DNA of 64,000 nucleotides, from assembly GCF_004010195.1 (NCBI RefSeq), contig NC_057718.1:100961637-101025636 (forward strand), given 5' to 3'. The stretch comes from Chiloscyllium plagiosum (lineage: Eukaryota). Of the stretch, positions 1,292 through 56,893 are shown piece after piece. Under the pieces are notes generated by a model, which made no database searches, had not been told where the DNA came from, and saw nothing but the letters and a program-made list of their open reading frames with translations. Position 1 is the first letter of the stretch; each line of letters opens with the position of its first letter. Position numbers and translations under genes: made by a program.

Positions 1292-2622
1292 GGATGGAAG
1301 AGGTTGTAGGAGAGCATTGCCGGGGTTTGATGGGACTTTGATGATGTTGGTGGCATTTCTGTGGCAAGAAGCTGTGTAAATAGAGTCTGTGGGTGGAAGT
1401 TTGGCTTCCATGATAGATGGGCTGTGCGCATCACCTTCTCTCGGTTCTTATGGTCCTGGGCAGAGCAGTTGCTGCACCAGGCCGTTATACCACCCAGACA
1501 GTATGCTTTCTGTTATGCGTCTGTTGTAGTTTCAGGTGCTTTGAAAGGTATTGACCACAGCATGGTACCTTTTTGCATCTACTTTGAGCTTTTAACTTGC
1601 TTGCGATATGCTGTACATCTCTATGACTCTATTTGACTTGACATTCTGTCTCCTTGCATCTTCCTATTGAGTTGTCGTGTAGAGGAGGGAGCCAATGGCA
1701 GTAATCAAGCACTGTTGTGAAGTTTTAAAGAAGAAACCCTCTGTCGGTAATGATTGACTGAACAAGACATGGAAGCAGTTGCAGCATCCAGCCTGGATAA
1801 ATAGAAGAGGAGGTTAATGGCTTTCTATAGCGGGGGAGTAAAACTGACCCTGGAGTTCCAAACCCACTCATTATCAGCAGAATCTTGGCAGAGGTCAAAA
1901 CTCTCAGCGTGATTTGCCACAGGCTAGTCGAATCAGGCAAGTTCCCAAATTTCTAAAATGTTGGAACTCTCGTTTGGCTGCTTTTGTTTCTTTTGTGCAG
2001 ATCCCCTTGTGATGTTCAGTGACATTCCCATAGCTTGAAAAAAAAATACGAGGCGGCACGATAATTATGTCATGGGTTCACAATGTGGAAATTATTACTG
2101 ACTCAGTAAGTGGAGAAGGGATTGAGCACCCGAAGGTTAAATTTTTGTACTAAAGATCACAAAATTCTAACTACAAAGAGCTTTGGACTCCAAAGTGAAA
2201 TTTACACTCTGAAGTGTAAGCGGCCCTCTCTCAGTCATGAAAAGAAAATGAATTTCTAAGCTTGCCAGATGTGTACAATGTCAATGTAGAACTTGAATTA
2301 GTGCAAAGTAAAGTAAGTTGTCAGAGAGAATTTTTTTTTACTTGATTAAGATAATTGTGTATTTTTATGATCATTACTGGAGTGAAACAGGGCCCTTAAT
2401 TTGAGAACATTAAATGCTCCAATTTCACCCTTTTGGGACACCGATCATTTGATGCAAACTTGCAGTTTGACCACAGAAGCTAAGACTCCTGCTGTAATGC
2501 CCTGTATATCTTAATAGATCAGTCAACATTCTTCAGAGGCTAGGAATTCTTCAGCGAGTAACTTACATCCTAACTCCCCAAAGCCTACCTAAAATCTGCA
2601 GGAAGTATGATGGAATACTCTT

Positions 2623-3344
2623 AGTTAAAAATCACACAGTACCAGGTTATAGTCCAACAGGCTTAATTGGAAGCACACTAGCTTTCGGAGCGTCGCTCCT
2701 TCATCAGGTGGTAGTGGAGGGCTCAATCCTAACACACGGAATTTATAGCAAAAATTTACAGTGTGATGTAACTGAAATTATACATTGAAAAATTGATTGT
2801 CTGTTAAGCCTTTCATCTGTTAGAATACAGTGATAGTTTCACTTCTTTCATGTGTAAATCACAAAACCCTTTTTTTTAAAGTTGCATTCTTGGGTTAGCT
2901 GTTAATAATGGTGATAGCTAGACAATATGTCGAAGGTGTTAGCCCCCTGTGTAAGTCTGTGAAGGGGTGCATGTGTGAGTGTGGGAATGTGTGTGTCTGT
3001 AAGAGTATGTGTGGGTGTCTGTGTATAGGAGTGCCTGTGTATGTGTGAGCGTGTGTGTGTGTGTGTGTGTGTAGGAGTATCTGTGTGTGTGTGTATAGTG
3101 CAATGGTGGTCACCTGTAATGTGACATGAACCCAAGGTCTTGGTTGAGGCCCTCCCTATGGGTACCGAACTTAGCTATCAGCCTCTGCTCGGCCACTTTT
3201 CGCTGCTGCCAGTCCCGATGTCCGCCTTGGGAGGATGGTCACCTGAAGGTCCGAGGTCAAATGTCCTGGACCACTGAAGTGTTCCCCGACTGGAAGGGAA
3301 CACTCCTGTCTGTTGATTGTTGTGCGGTGTCCATTGTCATAGTC
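2623..3344 (-). mobile_element. Penelope-like element family B, 5'-truncated, with GIY-YIG C-terminus and intact hammerhead
   Basis: 12-bp TSD tggaatactctt (2611-2622, 3345-3356). Minus strand reads RTTINRQECSLPVGEHFSGPGH...QRLIAKFGTHREGLNQDLGFMSHYR*. GT-rich 3' UTR. Confidence 0.9.
2676..2710 (-). ncRNA. Minimal type I hammerhead ribozyme motif (PLE family B)
   Basis: Reverse complement: cac CUGAUGA a ggagc gac gcucc GAAA gc UA gug. Stems I and II pair perfectly; stem III is the palindrome AGCU. Confidence 0.75.
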
Positions 3345-3571
3345 TGGAATACTCTTGGCTTCCTAGATGGGTACAGCTCTAACACTCAAGAAACTCAATG
3401 TCATCCAGGACAAAGCAGCTCATTTGATTGGCACAACGTTCACTCCCTTAAAGGTCCAGCCTAATGCACAGTGGCAGCACAGTACCATCTCCCAGGTGCA
3501 TGTAGCAACCTGCCAAAATTCCTTTGGCAGCACCTTGAAAACCCACAATCTCTACCACTTAGAAGCACAAC

Positions 3572-3926
3572 AGCAACATGGTGGCTCAGTGGCTAGCACT
3601 GCTGTCTCATAGCGCCAGGGACCCAGGTTCAATTCCAGCCTCGGGTGACTGTCTGTGTGGAGTTTGCACATTCTCCGTGACTTTATGGATTTCTTTTGGG
3701 TGCTCTGGTTTTCTCCCACAATCCAGAGATGTGCAGGTTAGGTGGATTAACCATGCTGAATTACCCCATAGTGTTAACGGATGTGTAGGTTAGGTGGATT
3801 AGCCATAGGGAATGCAGGGCTTCAGGAATTGGATAGCGGGGGGGTGAGTCTGAGTGGGATGCTTTTCGGAGAGTCAGTGTAGACCTGTTGGGCCAAATGG
3901 CCTGTTTTCTCACTGTTGGGATTCCA
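3572..3926 (+). mobile_element. HE1-type tRNA-derived V-SINE
   Basis: A box tggctcagtgg, B box ggttcaattcc, V-domain gtggagtttgcacattctcc, CR1-like tail. Confidence 0.9.
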
Positions 3927-5009
3927 GAAAAAATGCATTGGAACACCATCCGGTTCCCCTCCAAGCCACACACATCCTGACTTGGAAATATATCGCTAAT
4001 GCTTCACGGTCACTGGAACTCCCTTTGTTAGAGCACTGTGGATGCCCCTATCCCAGGGAGACTGCAGCGGTTCAAGAAGGCAGCTCACTATGACCTTCTT
4101 AAGCTCAATTAAAGATAGACAATAACAGCTGCGCTGGCCAGTGACACTCACATCAGTGAAAGAATTTATAAAAATCAGCTCAACAGTGGACTTGTAGGTC
4201 ATGGCACACGATAACCGCCGATTGTGAAAATCATGTTATGAAAAGAGACAGCACTTTCTGGGGAGCTGAAGAGAAAGCTGCAAAAGAATCTTGAGAATTT
4301 TGGGCTGAGGATCTGCTTTACCATGCTAACATTAATGCGGAGTTCTTGAGAGTTCGCCTTCAAATCCATGCTAATCCTGGTTTAGCTGTGCTGTAACACA
4401 GCTGTTATATAGTCTTCACAGAAGTGAGACACACTTGAGATGAAAAACTGACTTCCTTAATTAAGTTAATTTATTTTAAAACTGCAGTATGTCAGGAGAG
4501 GACAAAGTCTTCGACTGTTTTGTATTGCTTCTTTTTTGAGTTAATATTTTTTTACAGACACCAGGCACGAGTGTGATAGGCTGAGTGAGATTAATCTCAA
4601 CTATTCACCGCTGTGTGGAGGTTCATTTTAAGATTACTATTTGCCCAGTTTTATCCCAGACAATCCGCTTCTCAGCTGGTCTGTCCCCTGTTTATTACCA
4701 GACATCTTTTATGTCCTGCACTTTTGTTTTGAAATCATTAATCCCACTGCTGCTAAAACTGGTCCTGAGTCTCACAGTTGTGTCAGCTGTGCTCTGTCAG
4801 TGGCTCTTGTTCCTCAGTGTTCAGGCTTGCACAGAGTTCCATCCCTACACTCAAGCCTGAGTATGTCATTTTGTACTTTCCCCCATGGTGTTATCCTATC
4901 TGACCCCATAACCTCCTCACCTTTTTTTTGCATCCTTATTCACTTCCAGCCTTGCAATGGACTTCAGCTGCAATGCTTGTTCCAAATTATGTCCATTTGG
5001 CTTTAATGT

Positions 5010-6965: not shown

Positions 6966-8122
6966 TTGATTTGAATTTCGTGTCATTAGACTAATTACAT
7001 TAATTTATTTAATATATGCAGTAGTGGATTAGGTGAACCAGTTTGATCCTAAAAGTGTTAACACCCATAAAATTCGTAACTTCTAATGAGCTTCATTAAT
7101 TTCTTCATTTGCACTCCTCTTTAGCTGACAGTATGTTCACTTTCTGCTTCTATTATTTACTTGTGGTCAACATTTTGTTTCCACAATGGGCTCATTTTCC
7201 ATGTAATTTGAAACGAACTGAAGAATGAAGTGTTAACATTTTAACCATTACCTCTTCAGTTCAATTCCGTGTTAGTTTGCTCTGAAGGTACTCGCGCTGG
7301 GGGTACAGTTAACATAAGAACGAGGAATAACAGTAAGCCATTTAGTCCCTCCAGCATGCTCCACCATTTAATATGATCATGGTTGATCTTATCTCAGACT
7401 CAACTCCAGTTTTCTACCCACTCCCCATAACCCTTTAACACATTACTCATTAAAAATTGCCGTGTCCCCTCTGTAAATTTATTCTGTGTCCACCATACAC
7501 CAGGTAATCAATTGCACAGAATCACATCCATTTGAGGGAAATAATTTCTCCTCATTTCTGTTCTAAATCTGCCACTCCTAAAACAATGAACTCTCATTCT
7601 AGATTGCTCCACAAAAGGAAACATCCTTCCTATATCTACTTCGTAAATCCCCTTAAGCATCTTGTATACCTCAATTAAATAGAGTCATAGAGTACAGCAC
7701 AGAAACAGACCTTTCGGCCAGACCATCCGTGCCAACCGGATATCTTAAGTTAATCTAGTCCCACCTGCCAGCACCCGTCCCATATCCCTCTAACCCATCC
7801 AGATGCCTTTTAACTGTTGTAATTGTACCAGCCTCCGCCACTTCCTCTGGCAGCACATTCCATACACACACCACCCTCTGCATGAACAAGTTGCACCTTG
7901 GGTCTTTTTTAAATCTTTCCCCTCCCACCTTAAACCTATGCCCTCTAGTTCTGGACTCCCCCACCCCAGGGAAAAGACCTTATCTTTTTATCCTATGCAT
8001 GCCCCTCATGATTTTATAAACCTCTATAAGGTTACCCTTCAGCCTCCGACGCTCCAGGGAAAACAATCCCAGCTTATTCAGCCTCTCCCTGGAGCTCAAA
8101 CCTTCCAACCCTGACAACATCC

Positions 8123-8740
8123 GCTGCACCTGATGTCGCCTCCTATACACTGGGGAGACAGGCCGCCTACTTGCAGAACGTTGCAGAGAACACCTCTGGG
8201 ACACCTGGACCAACCAACCCAACCGCCCTGTGGCTGAACACTTTAACTCCCCCTCCCACTCCACCAAGGACATGCAGGTCCTTGGCCTCTTCCATCACCA
8301 GACCATAGCAACACGACGCCTGGAGGAAGAGCGCCTCACCTTCCGCCTAGGAACCCTCCAACCACAAGGGATGAATGCAGATTTCTCCAGCTTTCTCATT
8401 TCCCCTCCCCCCACCTTTTCTCAGTCCCAACCCTCAGACTCAGCACCGCCTTCTTGACCTGCAATCTTCTTCCCGACCTGTCCACCCCCACCCCCTCTCT
8501 GGCCTATCACCCTCACCTTAACCTCCTTCCACCTATCGTATTCCCAACGCCCCTTCCCCAAGTCCCTCCTCCCTATCTTTTATCTTAGCCTGCTTGGCAC
8601 GCCCTCCTCATTCCTGAAGAAGGGCTTATGCCCGAAACGTCGATTCTCCTGCTCCTTTGATGCTGCCTGACCTGCTGCACTTTTCCAGCAACACATTTTT
8701 AAGCTCTGATCTCCAGCATCTGCAGTCCTCATTTTCTCCT
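8123..8740 (+). mobile_element. Penelope-like element family A: GIY-YIG fragment, 3' UTR and pLTR
   Basis: TSD aacatcc (8116-8122, 8741-8747). Peptide LYTGETGRLLAERCREHL...PVAEHFNSPSHS...FRLGTLQPQGMN. Hammerhead at 8614-8641. Confidence 0.9.
8611..8644 (+). ncRNA. Minimal hammerhead ribozyme motif (PLE family A)
   Basis: uuc CUGAAGA a gggc uuau gccc GAAA cg UC gau. Palindromic ACGU stem III; stem I is weak (2 bp). Confidence 0.6.
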
Positions 8741-9524
8741 AACATCCTTGTAAATCTTTTCTAAACCCTTTCAACATCCTTCTGACAGCAAGGAGACCAA
8801 AATTAGATGCAATGTTCTTAACGTGGCCTAACCAATGACCTGTACAGCCGTAACATGACCTCCCAACTCCTATACTCAGTGCTGTGACCAATAAAGAAAA
8901 GCATACCAAACAACTTCATCACTATCCTGTCTACCTGTGACTCCACTTTCAAGGAGCTATGAACCTGCACTCCAAGATCCCTTTTTTCAGCAACACTTCC
9001 CAGGACCTTACCATTAAGTGTATAAGTCATGTTCTGATTTTCCTTTCCAAAATGCAGCACCTTGCATTTATCTAAATTAAACTCCTCAGCCCATTGGCCC
9101 ATCTGATCAAGAGCCCATTGTAATGTGAGGTAATCTTCTTCACTGTCCATTACACCTCCAATTATGGTGTCATCTCCAAACTGACTAACCATACCTCCTA
9201 TGTTCATATCCAAATAATTTATTTAAATGATGAAAAGCAGTGGACCCAGCATCGATCCCTAAACTCTTGTGAGTAAGACCCATCTTGCCTTATAAGATAA
9301 GCCTTGCATCTCTGGAATTAATCACATGAACATTCTCTGAACTACGTCAAGCATCCTGCCTCAGAAAAAGGAACCACAACGGTGGGCACTACTTCAGATG
9401 CGGTCTCACAAATGCCTGATACAATTGCTACGTCACTTCCATAGTTCCGCAGGCAATGGTAACCCTTGTGTATGTGGCTATATATCAGGTCAGACTGAAC
9501 AATGAGTTGCAGTGGAATCACCTA

Positions 9525-10410: not shown

Positions 10411-11514
10411 TTCCATTCCTCTGTCTAATGGTCTTATGGAAAGGCCTCTTCCTGTTCCTATAGTGCATCAAATTGGACACACATTGGAGAGATCACATCT
10501 GAAAATTGTTTCTGTGATTTGCAGAATTGTCTTCTGAAAATTGGGATTTAACGTTGTTTGATCATGATAAAAGGTTGTCTCTCCTGACAGTGAGCTGTAA
10601 TTAGGAACGTGTGTGGATGAATTCATACCCTCCAGGGTAGACTGGATCTTGAATGTACTACAAGATCCTCTTCATCTGATTCCTTTTATTTGGAAGTTAA
10701 CATTTGCTAATTTAGGTTTGTTCATGTTTGAAAGAGATTATGGAATCACTTGGAGGGAAAATGATGATGCAGCATGCATTAAATGGTTTGATGGTGAAAA
10801 TGGATAAGTCTTGTGTCAGTCATGGTCCAAGCAACATAAGCATTTCACATTATCAAGGTTAGCTTTTAAGTGTGTCAAAAGATGTCCCATTTTTTGGAAA
10901 CTTGATGCAGCTTAATATTTAATTTATTGATGCTGTGTGAAAGGAGTTGGGTAAGGACATTTTATTGCTTTGAACGCACTGAGATGCAGCAGTAGGCTTC
11001 CACACAGTGTAATGACCTTCAAAAGATTTAATTATAATGGAGCACTCATTACAATGATCCCTCAATATTCCATTCCAGCTTGTTTTTTGCTACCCTGATG
11101 GCAATCTCGCTGTCTTTGCCTCAGACCTCTTGGCGTACATTTGAAAATGGCAGTGCTAAATCAATAAACCAAAGCCGGGGGTTGAGTGGAACATGTAGAA
11201 CATGTATGTCACTTGACGAGGTAGGTAAGTATTTATTTTGTACAGAGGGAAAGACAGCCATTGGAGCACTTGGCAGAGCTGGTGTAAAGCTGAGACTTAG
11301 ACATTGCTTTCTGTTTTAGTTTATCTGTGCTTGAGGTCCGTAGTCTTGTGAATTGATATGTTACTCTCGTTCCTTCTCCATTAGAGCTACTTATACATTT
11401 TTTTAAAAGTAGATTAAACATACCAACTACCATTGGACAACCAACCACGGTGCTTTTGTTCTCTGGATTAAACAGCAGATAATGACAGTGTGCAAGTCGG
11501 AAAGATATTTGATT

Positions 11515-11750
11515 TGTTTCACGCAGAGGGTGGTGTGCGTATGGAATGAGCTGCCAGGAGAAGTGGTAGAGGCTGGTATAATTACAACATTTAAAAGGCA
11601 ACTGGATGGATACATGAATACAAAAGGTGTAGAGGGATATGGGCCAAATGCTGGCAAATGGGATTAGATTCATTTTTCTGATAGGCATGGACAAGTTGGG
11701 CAGCAAGGTCTATTTCTGTGCTGTACATCTTTATAGTTCTATGACTCTGT
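11515..11750 (+). mobile_element. CR1 (HER1-like) 3' fragment
   Basis: FTQRVVCVWNELPGEVVEAG...FKRQLD; tail ctatgactct. Confidence 0.85.
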
Positions 11751-11964: not shown

Positions 11965-12100
11965 GTTTTGAGGAAGGGTCACCAGACCTGAAACATTAAC
12001 TCTGATTTCTCTCTGCAGATGCTGCCAGACCTACTGAGCTTTTCCAGCAACTTCTGTTTTTGTTTCTGATTTCCAGCAGTTGCAGTTCTTTCAGTTTTTA
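11965..12100 (+). mobile_element. PLE family E pLTR fragment with degenerate hammerhead
   Basis: ttgagga-a-gggtc accagacct-gaaa followed by gatgctgccagacctactgag. Related to 34885-35112. Confidence 0.6.
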
Positions 12101-12220: not shown

Positions 12221-12490
12221 ATGATTTGGAGGTGCCAGTGTTGGACTGGTGTTGACAGAGTTAAAAATCACACAATGCCAGGCTATAGTCCAACAGGTTT
12301 ATTTGGAAGCGCTAGCTTTCAGAGCGCTGCTCCTTCATCAGCTCATTCCATGCACGCACAACCCGCTGCATGAAACAAATTAAGTACCGTTCCTACTTGC
12401 AAACTGTCGTTATCTGCTGTTCAATCCATATAACAATCCATACAACCACCTGATGTAGGAGCGGCGCTCCGAAAGCTAGTGCTTCCAATT
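12221..12490. mobile_element. Fold-back PLE family B element with captured local sequence in the loop
   Basis: Minus-strand pLTR 12221-12342, plus-strand pLTR 12443-12490. Loop 12339-12428 is an inverted copy of 11464-11553. Confidence 0.85.
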
Positions 12491-13296: not shown

Positions 13297-14280
13297 GGAG
13301 GAGGTGGTGATCCATAGAGGTAATGACATTGGATCAATAATTAGAACTCTAAGCCAATGTTTGGGGGCATGGGTTCAAATCCCACCAAGGCAGATGATGA
13401 AATTTGAATTTACCAAAAAATTCATTTTTTAAAATCCAGTAAAAATCTGGAATAAAAGGCCAATCTAATCTTTACTGTGTAACTATTGTTAATTGTCATT
13501 AAAAATACACATGCTGGGTGGTTCACCAAAGTCCTTTAAGGGAAAAATTGAGTCATCCATATTTGATCTGGCCTACACGTGAATCCAATAAATCCCTACA
13601 ATGTGGAGGCAGGCCATTCAGCCCATCGAATCTACACTGACACTCCTGACAAGCAATCCACCAGACCCACTCCCATACCCCCATGCTCCGGTTTCCTCCC
13701 ATAGTCCAAAGATGTGCAGGTCAGGTGAATTGGCCATGCTAAATTGCCCGTAGTGTTAGGTAAGGGGTAAATGTAGGGGTATGGGTGGGTTGCATTTCAG
13801 CGGGTCGGTGTGGACTTGTTGGGCCGAAGTGCCTGTTTCCACACTGTAATGTAATCTAATCTAATCTAAAAACCCCTGTAACCTTGCATTTTCCATGGCA
13901 AATCCACCGAGCCTGCACATTCCTGGACACAATGAGCAATTTAGCATGGCCAATCCATCGTAACCTGCACATCTTTGGATTGTGGGAAGAAACCGGAGCA
14001 CCAGAGGAAACCCACGCAGACATGGGGAGAATGTGCAAACTCCACATGGACAGTCACCCTAGAGTGGAATCGAACCCTGGTCCCTGGCGCCGTGAGGCAG
14101 CAGTGTTAACCACTGAGCCACCGTGCTGCCCCTACTGTGCTAACTCCAGACCCACAGTCATGTGGTTGACTTTTAAATGCCCTAAGAAATGGCTTGAAGG
14201 GTCAATAAGCTTAAGTTGGGATGGGCAATGAATTCTGCCCTTGCCATCAGCACCCACATCCTATGAAAGAATTGAAAAAA
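13297..14280 (+). mobile_element. SINE family 2 split by nested HE1 copies
   Basis: Head/core at 13297-13590; continuation actccagacccacagtcatgtggttgac...gatgggcaatgaattctg at 14133-14280. Confidence 0.75.
13590..14131 (-). mobile_element. HE1 SINE (-) containing a 5'-truncated HE1 (+) at ~13684-13868
   Basis: Reverse-complement HE1 head ends at 14131. The inner plus-strand copy ends in (aatct)n. Confidence 0.85.
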
Positions 14281-14444
14281 GGTCCATATACCTATCCCAA
14301 GTTGTCTCAGAATCTTATGTTGACATGACTTCTTCTGTCTAAACATTAGAGAAATTAGATGTTACTTACGCCAAGTCTCCCCATTGAACGTTCTGCTAAC
14401 CCAGAAATTTGTACACTGTCATGTGCACCCACTTCTGGGACCGT

Positions 14445-14770
14445 TATTTTAAAAATTCATTTACGGCATGAGGGAGGCACTGGCTGGGCCTAGATTTATC
14501 GCCCATCCCTAATTGCCCAGAGGGCAGTTCAGAGTCAGCCACATTGCTGTGGGTCTGGACCAGATAAGGATGGCAGATTTCCTTCCCTGAAGGACTTTGA
14601 GCCAGGTGGGTTGTTCTGAGAATCAACAGTGGATTTATGGTCATCGTTGCACTCTTAATTACAGATTTTTTTAAAAAAATTCAAATTCCACCATCTGCCG
14701 TGATGGGAGTGAACCTGGGTCCTCAGAACATCACCCTAGTCTCTGGATTAACAGTGTAGCAGAAATATCA
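14445..14770 (-). mobile_element. SINE family 2
   Basis: Reverse complement of the 6064-6428 pattern. Confidence 0.75.
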
Positions 14771-16973: not shown

Positions 16974-17719
16974 GTTGTGGTTCTGTTCGCCGAGCTGGGA
17001 ATTTGTGTTGCAGACATTTCGTCCCCTGTCTAGGTGACATCCTCAGTGCTTGGGACCCTCCTGTGAAGGGCTTCTACCATACATCAAGAGCATTTCCGAA
17101 CTGACAGCCAGACTACGGGCGACCATTAGGACTCATAACAGCACACAAACTAACAGCCACTCTCAGACAACAACTCACCAGGACGAAGGACCCGATACCT
17201 AGCATGAGCAAAACCAATGTAGTGTACAAAATCCCATGCAAGGACTGCACAAAACACTACATAGGACAAACAGGAAGACAGCTAACGATCCGCATCCATG
17301 AACACCAACTAGCCACGAAATGACACGACCAGCTATCCTTAGTAGCCACACACTCAGATGACAAGCAACATGAGTTCGACTGGGACAACACTACTATTAT
17401 AGGACAAGCCAAACAGAGAACAGCCAGGGAATTCTTAGAGGCATGGCACTCATCCACTGATTCAATCAACAAACATATCGACCTGAACCCAATATACCGA
17501 CCACTGCAGCGGACAGCTGGAACTGACAATCGGAAGCGGCAGATACAAATCACTATAAATGCCGGAGGAAACATCACAAAAGTGCTTCACAGGAGGCTCC
17601 CAAGCACTGAGGATGTCACCTAGACAGGGGACGAAACGTCTGCAACACAAATTCCCAGCTTGGCGAACCAAACCACAACAACGAGCACCTGAGCTACAAA
17701 TCTTCTCCCAAACTTTGAT
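16974..17719 (+). mobile_element. Penelope-like element family D: inverted 5' pLTR, GIY-YIG fragment, 3' pLTR
   Basis: 13-bp TSD tatgaaaaggtac (16961-16973, 17720-17732). Peptide NVVYKIPCKDCTKHYIGQTGRQLTIRIHEH. Confidence 0.92.
17604..17643 (+). ncRNA. Minimal hammerhead ribozyme motif (PLE family D)
   Basis: gca CUGAGGA u gucaccu agac aggggac GAAA cg UC ugc. Antisense copy at 17010-17049. Confidence 0.75.
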
Positions 17720-26730: not shown

Positions 26731-27059
26731 CCACCACACAGCTGGAACCTCATTGCCAAGGCTCCCTACCCTCACCAAAAATAGGAATCCCTTGAAACCC
26801 AGTTTGTTTATATCCTTCCATAGGAACCCCACCTCTCTGTGTGACTCGATGCGAAGGAACTCATGGGTTGAATTTGAACAAGAGCAGGGCACTTTTCCCA
26901 TGTGACCTGGCCAATGTTTGACTCTTGTCCAATATCTTTTTTGGGAAAATATACTTTATTCATAAGAAAAGGAAATCTCAAACACAGTTACTAAAGCAGT
27001 TCAAATCTATACAGATATTGTGTACAGAGAAGAAAACAAGTTTTGGGTTTGACTTCCTC

Positions 27060-27330
27060 AATTGTGGTGTGCAGTGAGAGAGGGACTCACTGAAATCCTT
27101 GTAGAGGGAGGAAGAGAGCTTCTTCAAGGAAGGCGTCCTTGCAAGAGGATTTGCAGTCGGTTAAAATCTTCTCGGAGATAGTGAGGACTGCAGATGCTGG
27201 AGATCAGAGCTGAAAATGTGTTGCTGGAAAAGCGCAGCAGGTCAGGCAGCATCCAAGGAGCAGGAGAATCGACGTTTCGGGCATGAGCCCTTCTTCTTCC
27301 TGAAGAAATATGAGGGGGAGGGTGGGGGTG
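27060..27330 (-). mobile_element. PLE family A pLTR plus adjacent element sequence
   Basis: Reverse complement of 8620-8740 and of 21625-21692. Confidence 0.8.
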
Positions 27331-34110: not shown

Positions 34111-34884
34111 TCTCTCCTGCTCTCGCCATCTGTGTGCATTGGGAAGATTTGCAGATTAATGCTTTGACTGTCTGGCCATGTTATGAATGCATCTTCTTAA
34201 GACACTGAACCGTGAAGTGGGATTCAAACCTGGGGCCCCTGGCTCAGAGGCAGCAGCACTACCCATTGAACCCCAATTAATTCTGGTTGATAGTGCATAA
34301 ATTTGAACTGCAATCTCATTATTGTCCAGCAGTGTTTGGTTGTTAGTCAGGTAGTGATGGCAGAAAAACTGGGCGAGTGGTGTCACCTCATATGCTATTG
34401 AGAAGTCATAACAGTTTTTCTTGAATGCAGTGAAAACTCCCTGAGTTGGCGAGTGCGTGCATGTTCTATATTTTGAAACTCTGTCCAAACACAGCTTAAA
34501 CTGATTGCACTGAGTGACTTTAATCTAACTCTGGTCTCTATGTTTTGCCTACTGTTGAATAAAGCAGCTTACTAACGGAATACAATAACACTTTGCCTGG
34601 CTTTAACTGGGCACACCATTGCAGAGATGACAGGAGATCAGGAGATCCAATCAGGATTTCGATCAGGTCTCATTGTTACATTCTCAGCTGGCAGATATAA
34701 GGTGATGAGAGTCAGCATCTCCGCATAAAACAAATCGGCAAGCAGAAAGGCAGATTATAAAAGGGAATTTGCAGTTTGAGGAATATTGATTGTCCAACTT
34801 TCATTTTTCCCATCTAACAACAGAAACTAATCGGCTTTGAAACACATTTGGCCGTTTTGCGAACCTGATAGGGGTGGCCAATGA

Positions 34885-35112
34885 AACAAACACAGAGACT
34901 TCTAGACAAACTCAGCAGATCTGGCGGTATTGGTGGAGAGAGAAACAGAGTTAATATTTCAAGTCCAGTGTAGACTTCTCTTTAGTGTCATACCAGACTC
35001 AACTTGTTAACACTATTTTTCTCTCTCCACAGATGCTGCCAGAACTGCTGAGTTTCTTCAGCATTCGTTGTGTTTGTTTCAGATTTGTAACATTCGCAGT
35101 ATTTTGCTTTCA
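34885..35112. mobile_element. Fold-back PLE family E element
   Basis: Arm ~34885-34960 is complementary to ~35005-35080. Confidence 0.7.
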
Positions 35113-38534: not shown

Positions 38535-38670
38535 GATGCACAAAGTCAGAAGTCGCACCGCACCTGGTTTATTTGAAATCACAAGCTTTCAGAGCACAGC
38601 TCCTTCTTCAGGTTCACTTCCAAAAGCTTTGTGATTTCAAATAAATCTATTGGGCTATAACCTGCTGTCA
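38535..38670. mobile_element. Fold-back PLE family B element
   Basis: ttatttgaaatcacaagctttc...aaagctttgtgatttcaaataaa inverted arms turning at the hammerhead. Confidence 0.7.
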
Positions 38671-40290
38671 TAGAACATAGAACAATGCAGTACAGTACAG
38701 GCCCTTGATGTTTTGCCCACCTTTTATCCTGCAAAGATCAAACTCACCTACATACCCTTCATTTTACTATCATTCATCTGCCTATCCAAGAGTCACTTAA
38801 ATGTCCCTAATGTCTCTGACTCTACTACTACTGCTGGCAGTGCATTCCACGCACCCACCACTCTCTGCGTGAAGAACCTACCTCTGTCATCTCCCCTAAG
38901 CCTTCCTCCAGTCATCTTAAAATTATGCCCCCTCATGATAGCCATTTCTGCCCTGGGAAAAGGTCTCTGATATTCTTGAAAGGGTTCAGAAAAGATTTAC
39001 AAGGATGTTGCCAGGGTTGGAGAATTGAGCTATCGGGAGAGATTGAATAGGCTCGGACTATTTTCCCTGGAGGGTCGCAGGCTGAGGTATAGAGGTTTAT
39101 AAAATCATGAGGGGCATGGATAGGATAAATAGACAAAGTCTTTTCCCTGGGGTGAGGGAGTCCAGAACTAGAGAGCATAGGTTGAAGGCGAGAGGGGAAA
39201 GATATAAAAGAGACCTAAGAGGCAACCTTTTCATGCAACATTTAAAAGGCATCTGTATGGGTAAATGAATAGGAAGGGTTTGGAGGGATATGGGTTGGGT
39301 GCTGGCAGGTGGGACTAGATTGGGTTGGGATATCTGATCGGCATGGATGAGTTGAACCGAAGGGTCTGTGTCTGTGTTGTACATCTCTGTGACTCTATTC
39401 ATTCTATCTATGTCTCTCATCATCTTGTACCTCTCTATCAAAACACCTCTCACCCTTCTTCACTACAATGAGAAAAGCCCAAGGTCCCTCAACCTTTCTT
39501 CATGAGACAGTCCAGGCAGCATCCTGGTAAATCTCCTCTGTACCCTCTATAAAGCTTCCATATCCTTCCTAAAATGAGGCAACCAGAACTGAACACATTA
39601 TTCCAAGTGTGGTCTAACCAGTGCTCTATAGAGCTGCAGCGTAACAACACAGCTCTTAAACTCAATCCCCCTGCTAATGAAAGCCAACACACTGTATGCC
39701 TTCTTAATTACCCTATTTACTTGGGTGGCAACTTTGAGGGATCTATGGACATGGACCCCGAGATCCCTCTGTTCCTCCACATTGCCAAGAAACCTGCCTT
39801 TAGCCCTGCATTCAAACTCAACCTTCCGAAGTGAATGACTTAACAATTTTCCTGGTTGTACTCCATCTGCCACTCATCAGCCCAGTTCTGCGACCTGTCA
39901 ATGTCCCATTGCAACCTACAACAGCCCTCCACACTATCCACAACTGCACCAACCTTCATGTTATCGGCAACGTAGTAACCCACCCTTCCACCTCCTCATC
40001 AAGTCATTTATAAAAATCACAAAGAGCAGAGGTCCCAGAACTAATCCCTGCGGAACCCCCTGGTCATTGAGCTCCAGGTTGAATATGTTCCATCTCCCAT
40101 CACCGTCTATCTTTTATGGGGCAGCCAATTCCGAATCTCGACAGCTAGATTTCCCTGTATCCCATGCCTCCTTACTTTCTGAATGAACCTACCACAGGGA
40201 ACCTTATCAAGCACCTTGCTAAAATCCATGTACACCACACTCACTGCTCTACTTTCATCAATGTGTTTTGTCATATCCTCAAAGACTAAA
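38670..40290 (-). mobile_element. CR1 RT/3' remnant interrupted by an HER1-like copy (+, ~38970-39396)
   Basis: VVYMDFSKVLDKVP, EEQRDLGVHVHRSLK, LYRALVRPHLE. Confidence 0.85.
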
Positions 40291-40327
40291 TCCAACCAGC
40301 ACCTCTGCATCATTGCACAGTGGCAGC

Positions 40328-41330
40328 AACCTCTTCCTCCAACCGTCGTGTTGCCATGGTCTGGTGATGGAGGAGTCCAAGGACCTGCATGTCCTTGGTG
40401 GAGTGGGAGGGGGAGTTGTAGTGTTGGGCCACGGGGTGGTTGGGTTGGTTGGTCTGGGTGTCCCAGAGGTGTTCTCTGAAACGTTCTGCAAGTAGGCGGC
40501 CTGTCTCCCCAATATAGAGGAGGCCACATCGGGTGCAGCAGATGCAATAGATGGGACCTTGGAGGGAAGTAAGGGGGGAGGTGTGGGCGCAAGTTTTGCA
40601 TTTCTTGCGGTTGCAGGGGAAGGTGCCGGGAGTGGAGGTTGGGTTGGTGGGGGGTGTGGACCTGACGAGGGAGTCACGGAGGGAGTGGTCTTTTCAGAAC
40701 GCTGATAGGGGAGGGGAGGGAAATATATCCCTCGTGGTGGGGTCCGTTTGGAGGTGGCAGAAATGACGGCGGNNNNNNNNNNNNNNNNNNNNNNNNNNNN
40801 NNNNNNNNNNNNNNNNNNNNNNNNNNNNNNNNNNNNNNNNNNNNNNNNNNNNNNNNNNNNNNNNNNNNNNNNNNNNNNNNNNNNNNNNNNNNNNNNNNNA
40901 GGATGGGAGGTGGTGTAGTCCAGGTAGCTGTGGGAGTCGGTTGGTTTGTAGTAGATGTCCGTGTTGATTCGGTCGCCTGAGGTAGAAATAGATAGGTCGA
41001 GGAAGGGGAGGGAGGAATCTGGGACTGTCCAGGTGAATTTGAGGTCGGGGTGGAAGGTGTTGGTGAAGTGGATGAACTGTTCAACCTCCTCGTGGGAGCA
41101 CGAGGCAGCGCCGATACAGTCATCGATGTAGCGGAGGAAAAGGTGGGGGATGGGGCCAGTGTAGCTGCGGAAGATGGACTGTTCCACATGTCCTACGAGG
41201 AGGCAGGCAAGGACCGCAATTTCCCCCCAGACGTGGTCGACGATGCCCTCCACCGCATCTCTTCCACTTCCCGCTCCTCCGCCCTTGAGCCCCGCCCCTC
41301 CAACTGCCACCAAGACAGAACCCCACAGAA
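40328..41330 (-). mobile_element. Penelope-like element: RT (YIDD) and GIY-YIG remnant with an inverted internal segment (+, ~41208-41330); N gap 40773-40899
   Basis: LFLRYIDDCIG...FHPDLKFTW...LPFLDL...TDIYYKPTDSHSYLDY. The GIY-YIG part matches 8123-8340. Confidence 0.9.
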
Positions 41331-41564
41331 CCGCACTATATCCTATGAGTGACACTTGGTGGCACAAGGAGCAGACATGTTCGCTCGTAAATACAGTAAC
41401 ATATATTCACAGAAAAAATTAATGATCCAATTGTAATGAAACAATATATTGCATGATAGAATTAATATGTTCAACTGAAAAAGAATTTTTGTTTTGTATT
41501 GTGCATGTGTGTGCACATGCAATGAGGAAATGTCAGCAAGCAGATCCTTAAATAATAGCACTTG

Positions 41565-44437: not shown

Positions 44438-44809
44438 AATATTTATCGCTCAGTCAGCAAGGTGACCATTATCAAAGAACAGGATTGTGTGACATTGCTG
44501 AGTTTGAGCTAGCTGCAATATTTCCTACATTACAGTTGTAGCAACATTTCAAACATGTACTTCATTGGCTGCAGAGCCCTTTGACATGGCTGGTGTTCGT
44601 GAAAGCTGCTGTTAAATGTAAGTTTTTGTTTCTTGTCTCTCTAGAAGAATACTTATCCAGCACTTGATCTTTCGACAGTCATTTAAATCTCCACACTGTA
44701 CTACTGCTGAAGGAGACTCCAAATGATGAATAACATTTTCAAGCTGTGCAGTGCGCTTGCGTTTGAAGTCACAAGATGTAAAAAGGTTGTCCTGCTGGCT
44801 ATACAAACT

Positions 44810-44975
44810 GGACAGGCAGGAGGCTGGAAGAACACAGCAAGCCAGGCAGCATCAGGAGGTGGAGAAGGGTTGCATCCAAAACATCGACTTCTCCACCTCC
44901 TGATGCTGCCTTGCTTGCTGTGTTCTTCCAGCCTCCTGCCTGTCTACTTTGGATTCCAGCATCTGCAGTTTTTCA
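44810..44975. mobile_element. Fold-back PLE family C element
   Basis: 44810-44867 is the reverse complement of ~44888-44945. Confidence 0.8.
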
Positions 44976-47234: not shown

Positions 47235-47930
47235 GAAAATAAAGAGGGCAGCAACATTCAGCAGTCCAAGAATGGCAGGAAAGAAGCTGTTCTTGAACCT
47301 GTTGATATGTGTGTGTTCAAGCTTCTGTATCTTCTGTCTGGCAGAAGAGATTGGAAGAGAATATTGCTGGGGTGGGAGGGGTCTTTGATGATGTTGGCAC
47401 CTTTCCGCGGCAATGAGCCGTGTAAATGGAGTGCGTGGGTGGAAGGAGAGAGTGATGACTGCAGATGCTGGGGAGTCAGAGTCGAAAAGTATGGCACTGG
47501 AAAAGCACAGCAGATCAGGCAGCATCTGAGGAGCAGGACAGTCAAAGTTTGGAGCATCAGCCCTTCATCTGGATGAAAGACTTGTGCCTGAAACATTGAC
47601 TCTCATGCTCGTTGGCTGCTGCCTGACCTGCTGTGCTTTTCCAGCACCGCACCTTTGATGCAGTGGCTTCCATAAGTTCTGGGCTCTGCACATCACCTTC
47701 TGTATATTGTTACGGCTCTGGGCAGAGCAGTTACCACACCAGACCATTATGCATCTGGACAGAATGCTTTGTAAAAGTTGGTGAGGGTTTTATGGACAAG
47801 CTGAATTTCTTAAGCTTCCTAAGGAAGGAGAGGCGTTGTTGTGCCTTCCTGACCATTGCATCTATGTGGGGTGGTCCAGGACAGATTGTTGGTATGCATC
47901 GCTCCTAGAAACATGACGCTCTCGATCTCC
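47235..47930 (-). mobile_element. Rex1/Babar 3' fragment containing a fold-back PLE family A insert (~47445-47657)
   Basis: KGANIIKDPSHPSNILFQSLLPDRRYRSL; inverted arms ggaaaagcacagcag / ctgctgtgcttttcc. Confidence 0.8.
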
Positions 47931-52430: not shown

Positions 52431-52668
52431 TTAACTCCATTAGTAGATTTTTCTATTCCGTTCACGCTCACATGTTATCTGTGTTTCCATTATGTGCATA
52501 ATTGCTTTACGCCTCAAACACTTCCTGTGGTAACAAGTTCCATGTTCTTTTTAGGTCGAGAAATTTCATTCCCTATTAAACTTATCCCCTAATTAAGGTC
52601 CTTGTTTTTGGGTCTCCTACTGGTGGAGAGACCTCTGTGTCTACACCAACAGTATCTTTAAGAATTGT

Positions 52669-52922
52669 CATGATTTGGAGATGCCGGTGTTGGACTGGGG
52701 TGTACAAAGTTAAAAATCACACAACATCAGGCTATAGTCCAACGGGTTTAATTGGAAGCAATAACTTTCAGAGCGATGCACCTTCATCAGGTGGTTGTGG
52801 AAAATAAGATTACAAGTTCTGTGTTATATACCACAACCACCTGATGAAGGAGCGGCGCTTCGAAAGCTAGTGCTTCCAATTAAACCTGTTGGACTATAAC
52901 CTGGTGTTGTGTGATTTTTAAC
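52669..52922. mobile_element. Fold-back PLE family B element with 12-bp TSD
   Basis: TSD tttaagaattgt (52657-52668, 52923-52934). About 90-bp inverted arms 52708-52800 / 52831-52922. Confidence 0.9.
52838..52872 (+). ncRNA. Minimal hammerhead ribozyme motif (PLE family B)
   Basis: cac CUGAUGA a ggagc ggc gcuuc GAAA gc UA gug. Confidence 0.72.
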
Positions 52923-52981
52923 TTTAAGAATTGTGCATTCTTCAACGAAATCATCCCTTATCCATCGAAACCTTGGAGAAT

Positions 52982-56761: not shown

Positions 56762-56893
56762 CATTCCTGATAAAGGGCTTATGCTCAAAATGTTGATTCT
56801 CCTGCTCCTCAGATGCTGCTTGACCTGTTGTGCTTTTCCAGCGCTACCCTTTTCAACCCTGACTCTTCAGCATCTGCAGTCCTCATTTTCTCC
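56762..56893 (+). mobile_element. Short PLE family A pLTR insert
   Basis: Starts attcctgataaagggcttatgctc (degenerate hammerhead) and ends ttttctcc. Confidence 0.8.

Follow-up and report, generated by a model that had tools for sequence, protein, structure and literature searches.

A head-to-head insertion of two element ends

The window, a 64,000-nt stretch of the Chiloscyllium plagiosum genome, contains at positions 52669 to 52922 two head-to-head 3' ends of a Neptune-type Penelope-like element (PLE) family, here named N1, with a tail of about 38 nt on one arm only. The fold-back arms (52706-52807 and 52824-52925) are complementary at 90 of 102 bases, and folding of the element as RNA gave z = -19.7 against 200 shuffles. 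The repeat CTTTAAGAATTGT flanks the element at 52656-52668 and, as an identical 13-mer on the plus strand, at 52922-52934; it is 13 bp long with 12 bp clear of the element end, in agreement with the 12-bp target site duplication (TSD) described in the earlier note.

Signed positions count from C3, the initial C of the hammerhead motif CTGANGA. The left arm (52669-52810, minus strand) is a tailed N1 3' end with its 5' end near -20. Its tail of about 37-38 nt covers 52669-52705; in the full-length copy L176 the tail ends at the ATG that opens the ORF (3998, followed by an open frame). A minimal type I hammerhead core (CTGATGA, stem II, GAAA), partly decayed, was found on this arm by pattern scan at 52766-52790 (minus). 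The right arm (52824-52922, plus) is a tailless N1 3' end terminating at about +82 to +85, with its 5' end at -17 or -33 depending on the reference. It encodes a further core found by pattern scan (52841-52869, plus), with a predicted cut after 52869 (+28) if the standard type I topology outlined in the available part of PMC4209133 applies, and an ATTAAA poly(A) signal (52879-52884, plus), which in reads of the family is followed after about 11-15 nt by poly(A) and then, in the genome, by a GT-rich stretch. Family alignment placed the whole element at 52671-52925, with arm 5' ends at -20/-17 and the right arm reaching -33 with another reference. The turn spans 52808-52823; each arm continues there past the hammerhead into upstream family sequence, and the junction was unlike those at the other loci examined. 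The identification as PLE pLTR ends in a head-to-head junction was confirmed. The pattern scan recovered the minimal type I features (CUGANGA core, stem II, GAAA, palindromic 15.2-16.2, short stem I); in an Rfam scan the hammerhead family was absent among the 40 matches at E <= 1, all of them sub-threshold and mostly to miRNA precursors.

Seven pLTR fold-backs had been reported in the window, and we found an opposite-strand arm pair at all seven. The other six are N2 hairpins (a second family, see below) at 1098-1287 (arm ends -3/+10), 44793-44970 (+29/+1) and 47451-47656 (-2/+2), an old N2 hairpin at 34883-35100 (+12/+18), an old N1 hairpin at 38535-38702 (-2/+18), and two N1 arms at 12222-12490 (0/-5), the right one cut short. 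The exception among clean fold-backs is 12222-12490, where 103 nt of other DNA lie in the turn. This filler (12341-12445) is 83% like window positions 11456-11551 reversed, its first 35 nt being a common repeat, and was possibly templated from nearby DNA. The solo copies noted at 875, 11965 and 56762 do start at the 5' edge of the hammerhead: they are plus-strand 3' ends of N2 at 874-991 (start -5) and 56762-56888 (start -5) and of old N2 at 11965-12089 (start -4). Profiles resolved the four families proposed in the note into two lineages, N1 and N2, each with young and old subfamilies.

The window contains further related insertions. A purine/pyrimidine-rich fold-back at 1-167 corresponds to 3' UTR sequence that, in an N2 subfamily, lies about 90-180 nt before the hammerhead. 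The window start likely truncates a longer PLE palindrome of which this is the turn; such a turn would be distant from the ribozyme. The Poseidon-type insertion at 16974-17716 is flanked by a 13-bp TSD; its inverted tailless arm ends at -29 and its long tailed arm at -534. Longer truncated Neptune-type copies with reverse transcriptase (RT) or endonuclease remnants lie at 40279-41406 (minus, broken by an N run), 2613-3330 (minus) and 8118-8741 (plus). Further inverted pairs at 13684-14000 and 14145-14559 comprise a SINE-like repeat present in both orientations and a 39-nt pair that is unrelated. A few N2 copies (27040-27296, minus, in the window; L168:3801-3880) extend 50-90 nt beyond the usual tail into shared sequence that is likely 5' UTR or ORF start, and that possibly represents a third 3' end.

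Families and parent elements

Upstream extension of copies separated three families: N1, N2 and the Poseidon-type P6. In all three, two 3' ends lie about 37-40 nt apart. Locus L176 holds a full-length N1 element with a 5' pLTR (3514-3997, its tail ending at the ATG), ORF, 3' pLTR up to 7435 and an inverted copy upstream, and L186 has a similar layout (pLTR as partial tandem, hammerhead inside). Among the 12 loci fetched for a full-length N2, no clear junction between a 5' pLTR and an ORF start was found. The RVT_1 domain matched the N2 parent at 5e-8, above the cut-off, and the N1 parent at 0.002, below it. A GIY-YIG-type motif (VVYLIRC...WYIGET) was read by eye in N1, on a fragment for which Pfam gave no GIY-YIG match; a Zn-finger-like Cys motif (PCHGRRCKTC) upstream of the endonuclease was also read by eye, in N1 only, and the P6 endonuclease has no linker Cys motif before it. 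Judged by these sequence features, the parent is a single ORF with predicted RT and C-terminal GIY-YIG endonuclease, that is, an EN+ Penelope-like element. We use Neptune-type as a provisional label for N1 and N2, based on the linker motif. A Cys motif in the RT-EN linker is described as common to Neptune and Nematis in the available part of PMC8557442.

At L177, L180 and L168, N1 copies abut the tail region of N2 copies, which could reflect an insertion preference. Long tandem arrays were seen at L167:5470-7900, where a short unit has grown from N2 ORF sequence, and at L166:2630-3970, where a longer unit lies beside an element.

Each hairpin is a separate insertion

Hairpins were counted in twelve 100-kb blocks taken at round coordinates on 12 chromosomes, blind to breakpoints, which with the window gave 1.26 Mb of a 3.56-Gb genome. 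This sample held 67 annotated copies of N1, 309 of N2 and 41 of P6, including 21, 60 and 5 abutting hairpins, respectively, and the density of short hairpins was about 14 (N1) and 45 (N2) per Mb. Head-to-head pairing goes beyond chance: 5' starts were less than 60 nt apart in 17 of 22 head-to-head pairs in N1 and 58 of 92 in N2, and the closest tail-to-tail pairs were separated by 343 and 70 nt. One tailed and one tailless arm were found in 20/21 N1, 50/60 N2 (70/81 for both) and 4/5 P6 hairpins. TSDs flanked 15/21, 25/60 and 5/5 of them and measured 11-17 bp save two of 7-8 bp.

The abundance of these hairpins and their clean TSDs would fit the suggestion of the earlier note that they form a mobile class of their own, MITE-like or retrozyme-like. 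A MITE repeats one fixed unit, internal junction included, across many loci, and the junctions found here vary by locus. Of the genome matches to the focal hairpin, the best 30 came from 26 distinct loci, and all 26 turns differed; among the 81 abutting hairpins of N1 and N2 only three junction types recurred, once each, and the recurring N2 junction -3/-3 carried its tail on opposite sides at its two loci. TSD length varied as well (7-17 bp), and the hairpin ends are the two RT start points of the PLE rather than terminal inverted repeats. Among same-strand neighbours within 320 nt in the 1.26 Mb, no head-to-tail retrozyme-like arrays were found. The diversity of junctions and TSDs and the single tailed arm point to separate insertions, so that junctions record per-insertion events. 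A hairpin that is itself mobile, or whose ends are set by ribozyme cleavage (see below), is largely refuted and extremely unlikely. The hairpins, 130-300 bases long, are a real and abundant variant of a known PLE insertion structure, with no new mobile class.

Breakpoints concentrate in front of the hammerhead core

Copies of N1 and N2 frequently start just before the core. In the 1.26 Mb, 23/67 N1, 80/309 N2 and 1/41 P6 5' ends fell in -10..-1, end calls from local alignments being uncertain by a few bases. For N1 this amounts to 6.5 ends per 100 nt at risk, compared to 0.9 in -100..-11 and 0.65 in 0..+44; for N2 the rates were 7.9, 0.65 and 1.3. Per base, the peak thus exceeds the upstream rate 7.2-fold (N1) and 12.1-fold (N2) and the downstream rate 9.9-fold and 6.3-fold. 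Breakpoints were therefore not uniform (p = 9e-9 for N1 and 3e-36 for N2 against the upstream rate), and the concentration at the hammerhead front edge claimed in the earlier note stood far above a constant rate. An independent N2 set, from loci fetched for other families, gave 40/109 ends in the peak (12.7 vs 1.4 per 100 nt) after removal of 10 loci that were duplicates or in the window and of matches with less than 200 nt upstream.

The main risk of artefact is that alignments end where conservation between subfamilies ends. Hairpin arms and solo copies delimited by TSDs are immune to such upstream drift, and both showed the peak: 16/42 N1 and 40/120 N2 arms of abutting hairpins (11 N2 arms pass -10), and 9/24 TSD-defined N2 solos, with 2 TSDs in the shifted control. 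This speaks against an alignment artefact. N1 solos had a TSD in only 4/16 cases, one of those four in the peak. Solo copies as a whole (6/25 N1, 33/160 N2), young copies (19/52 N1, 34/143 N2) and several subfamilies of both lineages peaked as well. When young N1 copies were selected by their sequence downstream of +12, 7/29 ends lay in -10..-1 and three in -15..-11, whereas -30..-16 was empty. The cluster of young N1 ends, at -10..-8, lies beyond the 3-bp stem I.

No excess of ends was found at the predicted cut (+27/+28), the rate in +25..+34 being 0.3 (N1) and 0.8 (N2) per 100 nt, and ends defined by cleavage were rejected on this ground. Two further candidates were rejected. A 3' splice site at the boundary was considered since in D. 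virilis an intron ends at helix I, according to the available part of PMC4209133; an AG occurs there in some of the old N2 subfamilies but nowhere else, and no upstream exon is common to the short copies. A type III hammerhead with a cut 5' of the core would need a matching stem III, and none was seen by eye.

We also considered that RT is stalled or released at stem I's front edge by the folded hammerhead or a protein bound to it. In favour of this, the N2 peak overlies the 5' strand of stem I, end rates are also raised within the core (0..+19; in N2, 50/309 ends lie in 0..+9, 2.8 per 100 nt), and PLE protein aids ribozyme folding in vitro in the available part of PMC11167929. However, RT runs 3' to 5' on the RNA and would meet a fold from the 3' side, so that stops should fall in +25..+44, the stretch with the lowest rates, and N1 ends at -8..-10 lie outside stem I. 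P6 has the hammerhead and no pile-up, with 2/70 ends in -10..-1 (41 copies plus 29 more, with the window's own copies L197 and L230 dropped and two N-bounded copies censored); arm lengths of two long P6 palindromes are overestimated, which leaves the peak unaffected. Partners of long arms rarely stop at the boundary either (1/23 and 1/11, see below). A stall is therefore unlikely. The claim that the ribozyme fold sets the stop is correspondingly weakened: the peak at the front edge stands, and the missing excess at the cut, the absence of a P6 peak and the passage of long-arm partners speak against it.

The two arms of a hairpin are concordant

Whether an arm passes the boundary was correlated with the behaviour of its partner. 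Both, one or neither arm extended past -15 in 5/2/14 N1 hairpins (p = 0.001) and 6/7/53 N2 hairpins (p = 1.6e-4). Partners of arms past -30 ended in the peak in 0/7 (N1) and 1/16 (N2) cases, 1/23 together, compared to 6/13 and 25/71, or 31/84, for partners of short arms. Of the 20 N1 loci that carry an ORF, 11 had an abutting inverted arm, and 10 of these 11 arms passed the boundary by at least 88 nt. A fold should affect every arm alike, whereas a template RNA that either has or lacks its 5' end at this position explains the concordance. Symmetric junctions may over-extend both alignments by up to about 14 nt, which limits these counts.

Concordant arms would also be expected if one cDNA or antisense RNA folded back and primed itself to give a palindrome, as proposed in the available part of PMC3846280. 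A few symmetric junctions recur, and overlaps of at least 2 nt were present at 7/21 N1 and 20/60 N2 junctions. Snap-back, however, requires the tailed arm to be the longer one, and the tailless arm was longer in 9/20 N1 and 24/50 N2 hairpins, the tailed arm in 4/20 and 17/50. Moreover, filler of at least 2 nt was found at 11/21 and 32/60 junctions, and solo copies share the peak. We consider self-priming quite unlikely. Arm-to-arm identity ranked at a mean percentile of 0.65 and 0.73 relative to other copies; being only moderately higher, it argues weakly for a single template.

A short non-autonomous master copied in trans (SINE-like or retrozyme-like, starting at -4/-8) could supply the short arms, a reading close to the one we favour. 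It predicts the same upper bound and the same concordance, and animal retrozymes derive from pLTRs in the available part of bioRxiv 10.64898/2026.07.22.740005. Against it, the peak is shared by several subfamilies across both lineages, clean head-to-tail arrays of a short unit were absent among neighbours on the same strand within 320 nt, and copies starting at -4 lack the upstream TATA-like box. We regard such a master as very unlikely.

Upstream of the boundary, TATAWW was present in 10/16 long N1 copies, with 9 sites at -40..-38. A relaxed TATA-like hexamer occurred at -37..-33 in N2 (30 sites in 47 long copies); the canonical form was present in only 4/47 of these, and young N2 is without a canonical TATA box. 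A pyrimidine-A step at -4 was found in 46/51 long N2 copies. The offset in TATA position between families parallels that of the outer edge of the ends (about -8 in N1, -4/-5 in N2). Start sites were predicted from the usual 30-nt TATA-to-start spacing and the initiator consensus. A copied cap would leave an extra G at the cDNA end, and a G directly 5' of A(-4) was found in 13/25 N2 copies without a templated C, against a background of 28% (p = 0.009); the effect is modest and was counted in N2, where 27/52 copies have a C at -5, clean N1 cases being too few to count.

RNA reads place a poly(A) site inside the pLTR

About 2% of run X21 (poly(A)-selected and so blind to circular RNA, single-cell, linked to the genome by the species label alone) was read, yielding 3841 reads at >=85% identity; they stem from a multi-copy family and may include host transcripts ending in copies. 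In 370 and 443 reads poly(A) is entered at L176 positions 3933 and 3936 (+57 and +60), where the genomic sequence is not A-rich. An A(A/T)TAAA signal precedes the site by 11-15 nt, and a GT-rich stretch follows it. AATAAA or ATTAAA was present in 40 of the 48 N1 copies scored. The N1 poly(A) site lies upstream of both RT start points. A predicted stem of 9-11 bp at L176:3922-3985 (whole-fragment z = -1.5) pairs the poly(A) cleavage region with the tail and might mask the 5' poly(A) site or expose the positions where RT starts.

In X21 no N1 or N2 site was found at which many molecules begin, poly(A) was absent among the 6 listed of 161 N2 loose ends, and no read started or ended at the predicted cut among those listed. 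Hairpin junctions were seen in N2 reads, e.g. 15 reads from 12 starts joining 8610 and 8621. Read depth steps at the boundary, which is also expected from read-through of the many short genomic copies. In genomic loci L185 and L194 a pLTR piece starting at about -8 or -5 is joined to internal ORF sequence; in L194:2863-2929 (oriented) this piece, about -5 to +60, matches the predicted R region and joins internal ORF sequence directly. These junctions hint at template jumps after run-off.

A proposed mechanism

We propose that the hairpins are probably single Neptune-type PLE insertions in which both nicked target strands primed cDNA on element RNA, the peak marking the 5' end of that RNA. The endonuclease would make a staggered cut, and the two 3' ends would prime at internal sites, near +88 for the tailless arm and near +125 for the tailed one. 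With a transcript initiated in the pLTR as template (predicted starts near -8 in N1, TATA-like box at -40/-38, and near -4 in N2, box at -35/-33), neither cDNA could pass the capped 5' end, which would explain why arms measure at most about 130 nt. With a read-through 3' pLTR as template both arms would run on, giving ordinary long truncated copies and long inverted arms; the focal element may be a short case of this class, or an upstream start may have been used. The cDNA ends would then be joined through microhomology or with filler. The hammerhead would lie at the turn because it sits at the transcript start, not by cutting or stalling.

Components of this scheme have precedents in the available parts of earlier work. 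PLE protein of an anole Poseidon element cuts and extends both strands in vitro, two internal RT start sites define the tail, and ribozyme cleavage is not needed (PMC11167929); in D. virilis, the Penelope promoter and start site lie within the pLTR (PMC2377424).

Several observations fit run-off less well. The start site is putative, and X21 gave no site of molecule starts. The focal arms (-20, -17/-33) overshoot the predicted start by about 10-25 nt, and many arms end within the hammerhead (0..+9 in N2). P6 has a TATA box at -53..-48, yet ends do not accumulate some 30 nt after it (4 ends, 0.5 per 100 nt), which argues that run-off is not general. In N2 the predicted start coincides with the 5' edge of stem I, so that position alone cannot separate run-off from a stall in this family.

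A more far-reaching version, which we hold to be doubtful, is that the Neptune pLTR is a true U3-R-U5 with its start just before the hammerhead and poly(A) at about +58. The hairpins would then be twin strong-stop DNAs, and long copies would arise only from unprocessed read-through RNA or by a jump to the 3' copy of R. Since poly(A) lies upstream of both RT sites, mature mRNA would offer these sites only at its 5' end. Arm concordance speaks against an independent jump for each arm.

Relation to known systems

Retroviral minus-strand strong-stop DNA is primed near the RNA 5' end and runs off at the cap, and in LINE-1 twin priming a second primer from the other target strand leads to an inversion. 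Priming near the RNA 5' end, run-off and a second primer from the other strand would be similar here, and the N1 pLTR is laid out like U3-R-U5; in contrast, the primer is nicked target DNA and not a tRNA, both arms start at near-identical 3' sites, and strand transfer is putative. The in vitro reactions of the Poseidon element PAc share the cutting and extension of two strands, the two internal RT starts and the independence from ribozyme cleavage; the available part of that paper (PMC11167929) draws no link between an RNA 5' end and genomic hairpins, and P6 here shows no pile-up.

In EN+ PLEs, units with an adjacent inverted 5'-truncated copy and a one-sided tail of 30-40 bp have been described (D. 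virilis Penelope, Adineta Pen2a; PMC8557442 and PMC3846280, in the parts available), and opposite-strand hammerhead pairs 100-700 bp apart have been noted (PMC4209133, likewise in part). Published work hence already covers the inverted arm, the tail, the TSD and hammerhead pairs on opposite strands. The hairpins resemble the units described in those parts in their head-to-head arms, one-sided tail, TSD and palindromic junction, and differ in that both arms are at most 130 nt, loci number an estimated tens of thousands, the bound at the hammerhead front edge is sharp, no such bound being given in those parts, and arms are concordant. Non-LTR retrozymes, as presented in the available part of bioRxiv 10.64898/2026.07.22.740005, are also non-coding and pLTR-derived with a type I hammerhead; they are head-to-tail tandems processed at the cut, unlike the head-to-head units here, which end before the ribozyme. 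Our literature search found no account of breakpoints peaking at the front edge of the hammerhead, of strong-stop products or of a pLTR poly(A) site, points on which supplements and subscription papers may bear.

Genome annotation should list these hairpins under PLE fragments and not under MITEs or miRNA precursors; Rfam yields many miRNA matches to them below threshold. Should the bound prove to be the RNA start, the fossil insertions of this genome, estimated at 2 x 10^5 by extrapolation from 1.17 Mb, map the start site, record priming on two strands in vivo and argue that the template was not cleaved by its own ribozyme. The U3-R-U5 layout, if true, would also account for the formation of partial-tandem pLTRs and perhaps for intron retention in PLEs. 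The hairpins thus offer a quantitative and testable clue to the replication of PLEs, whose copying mechanism is poorly understood.
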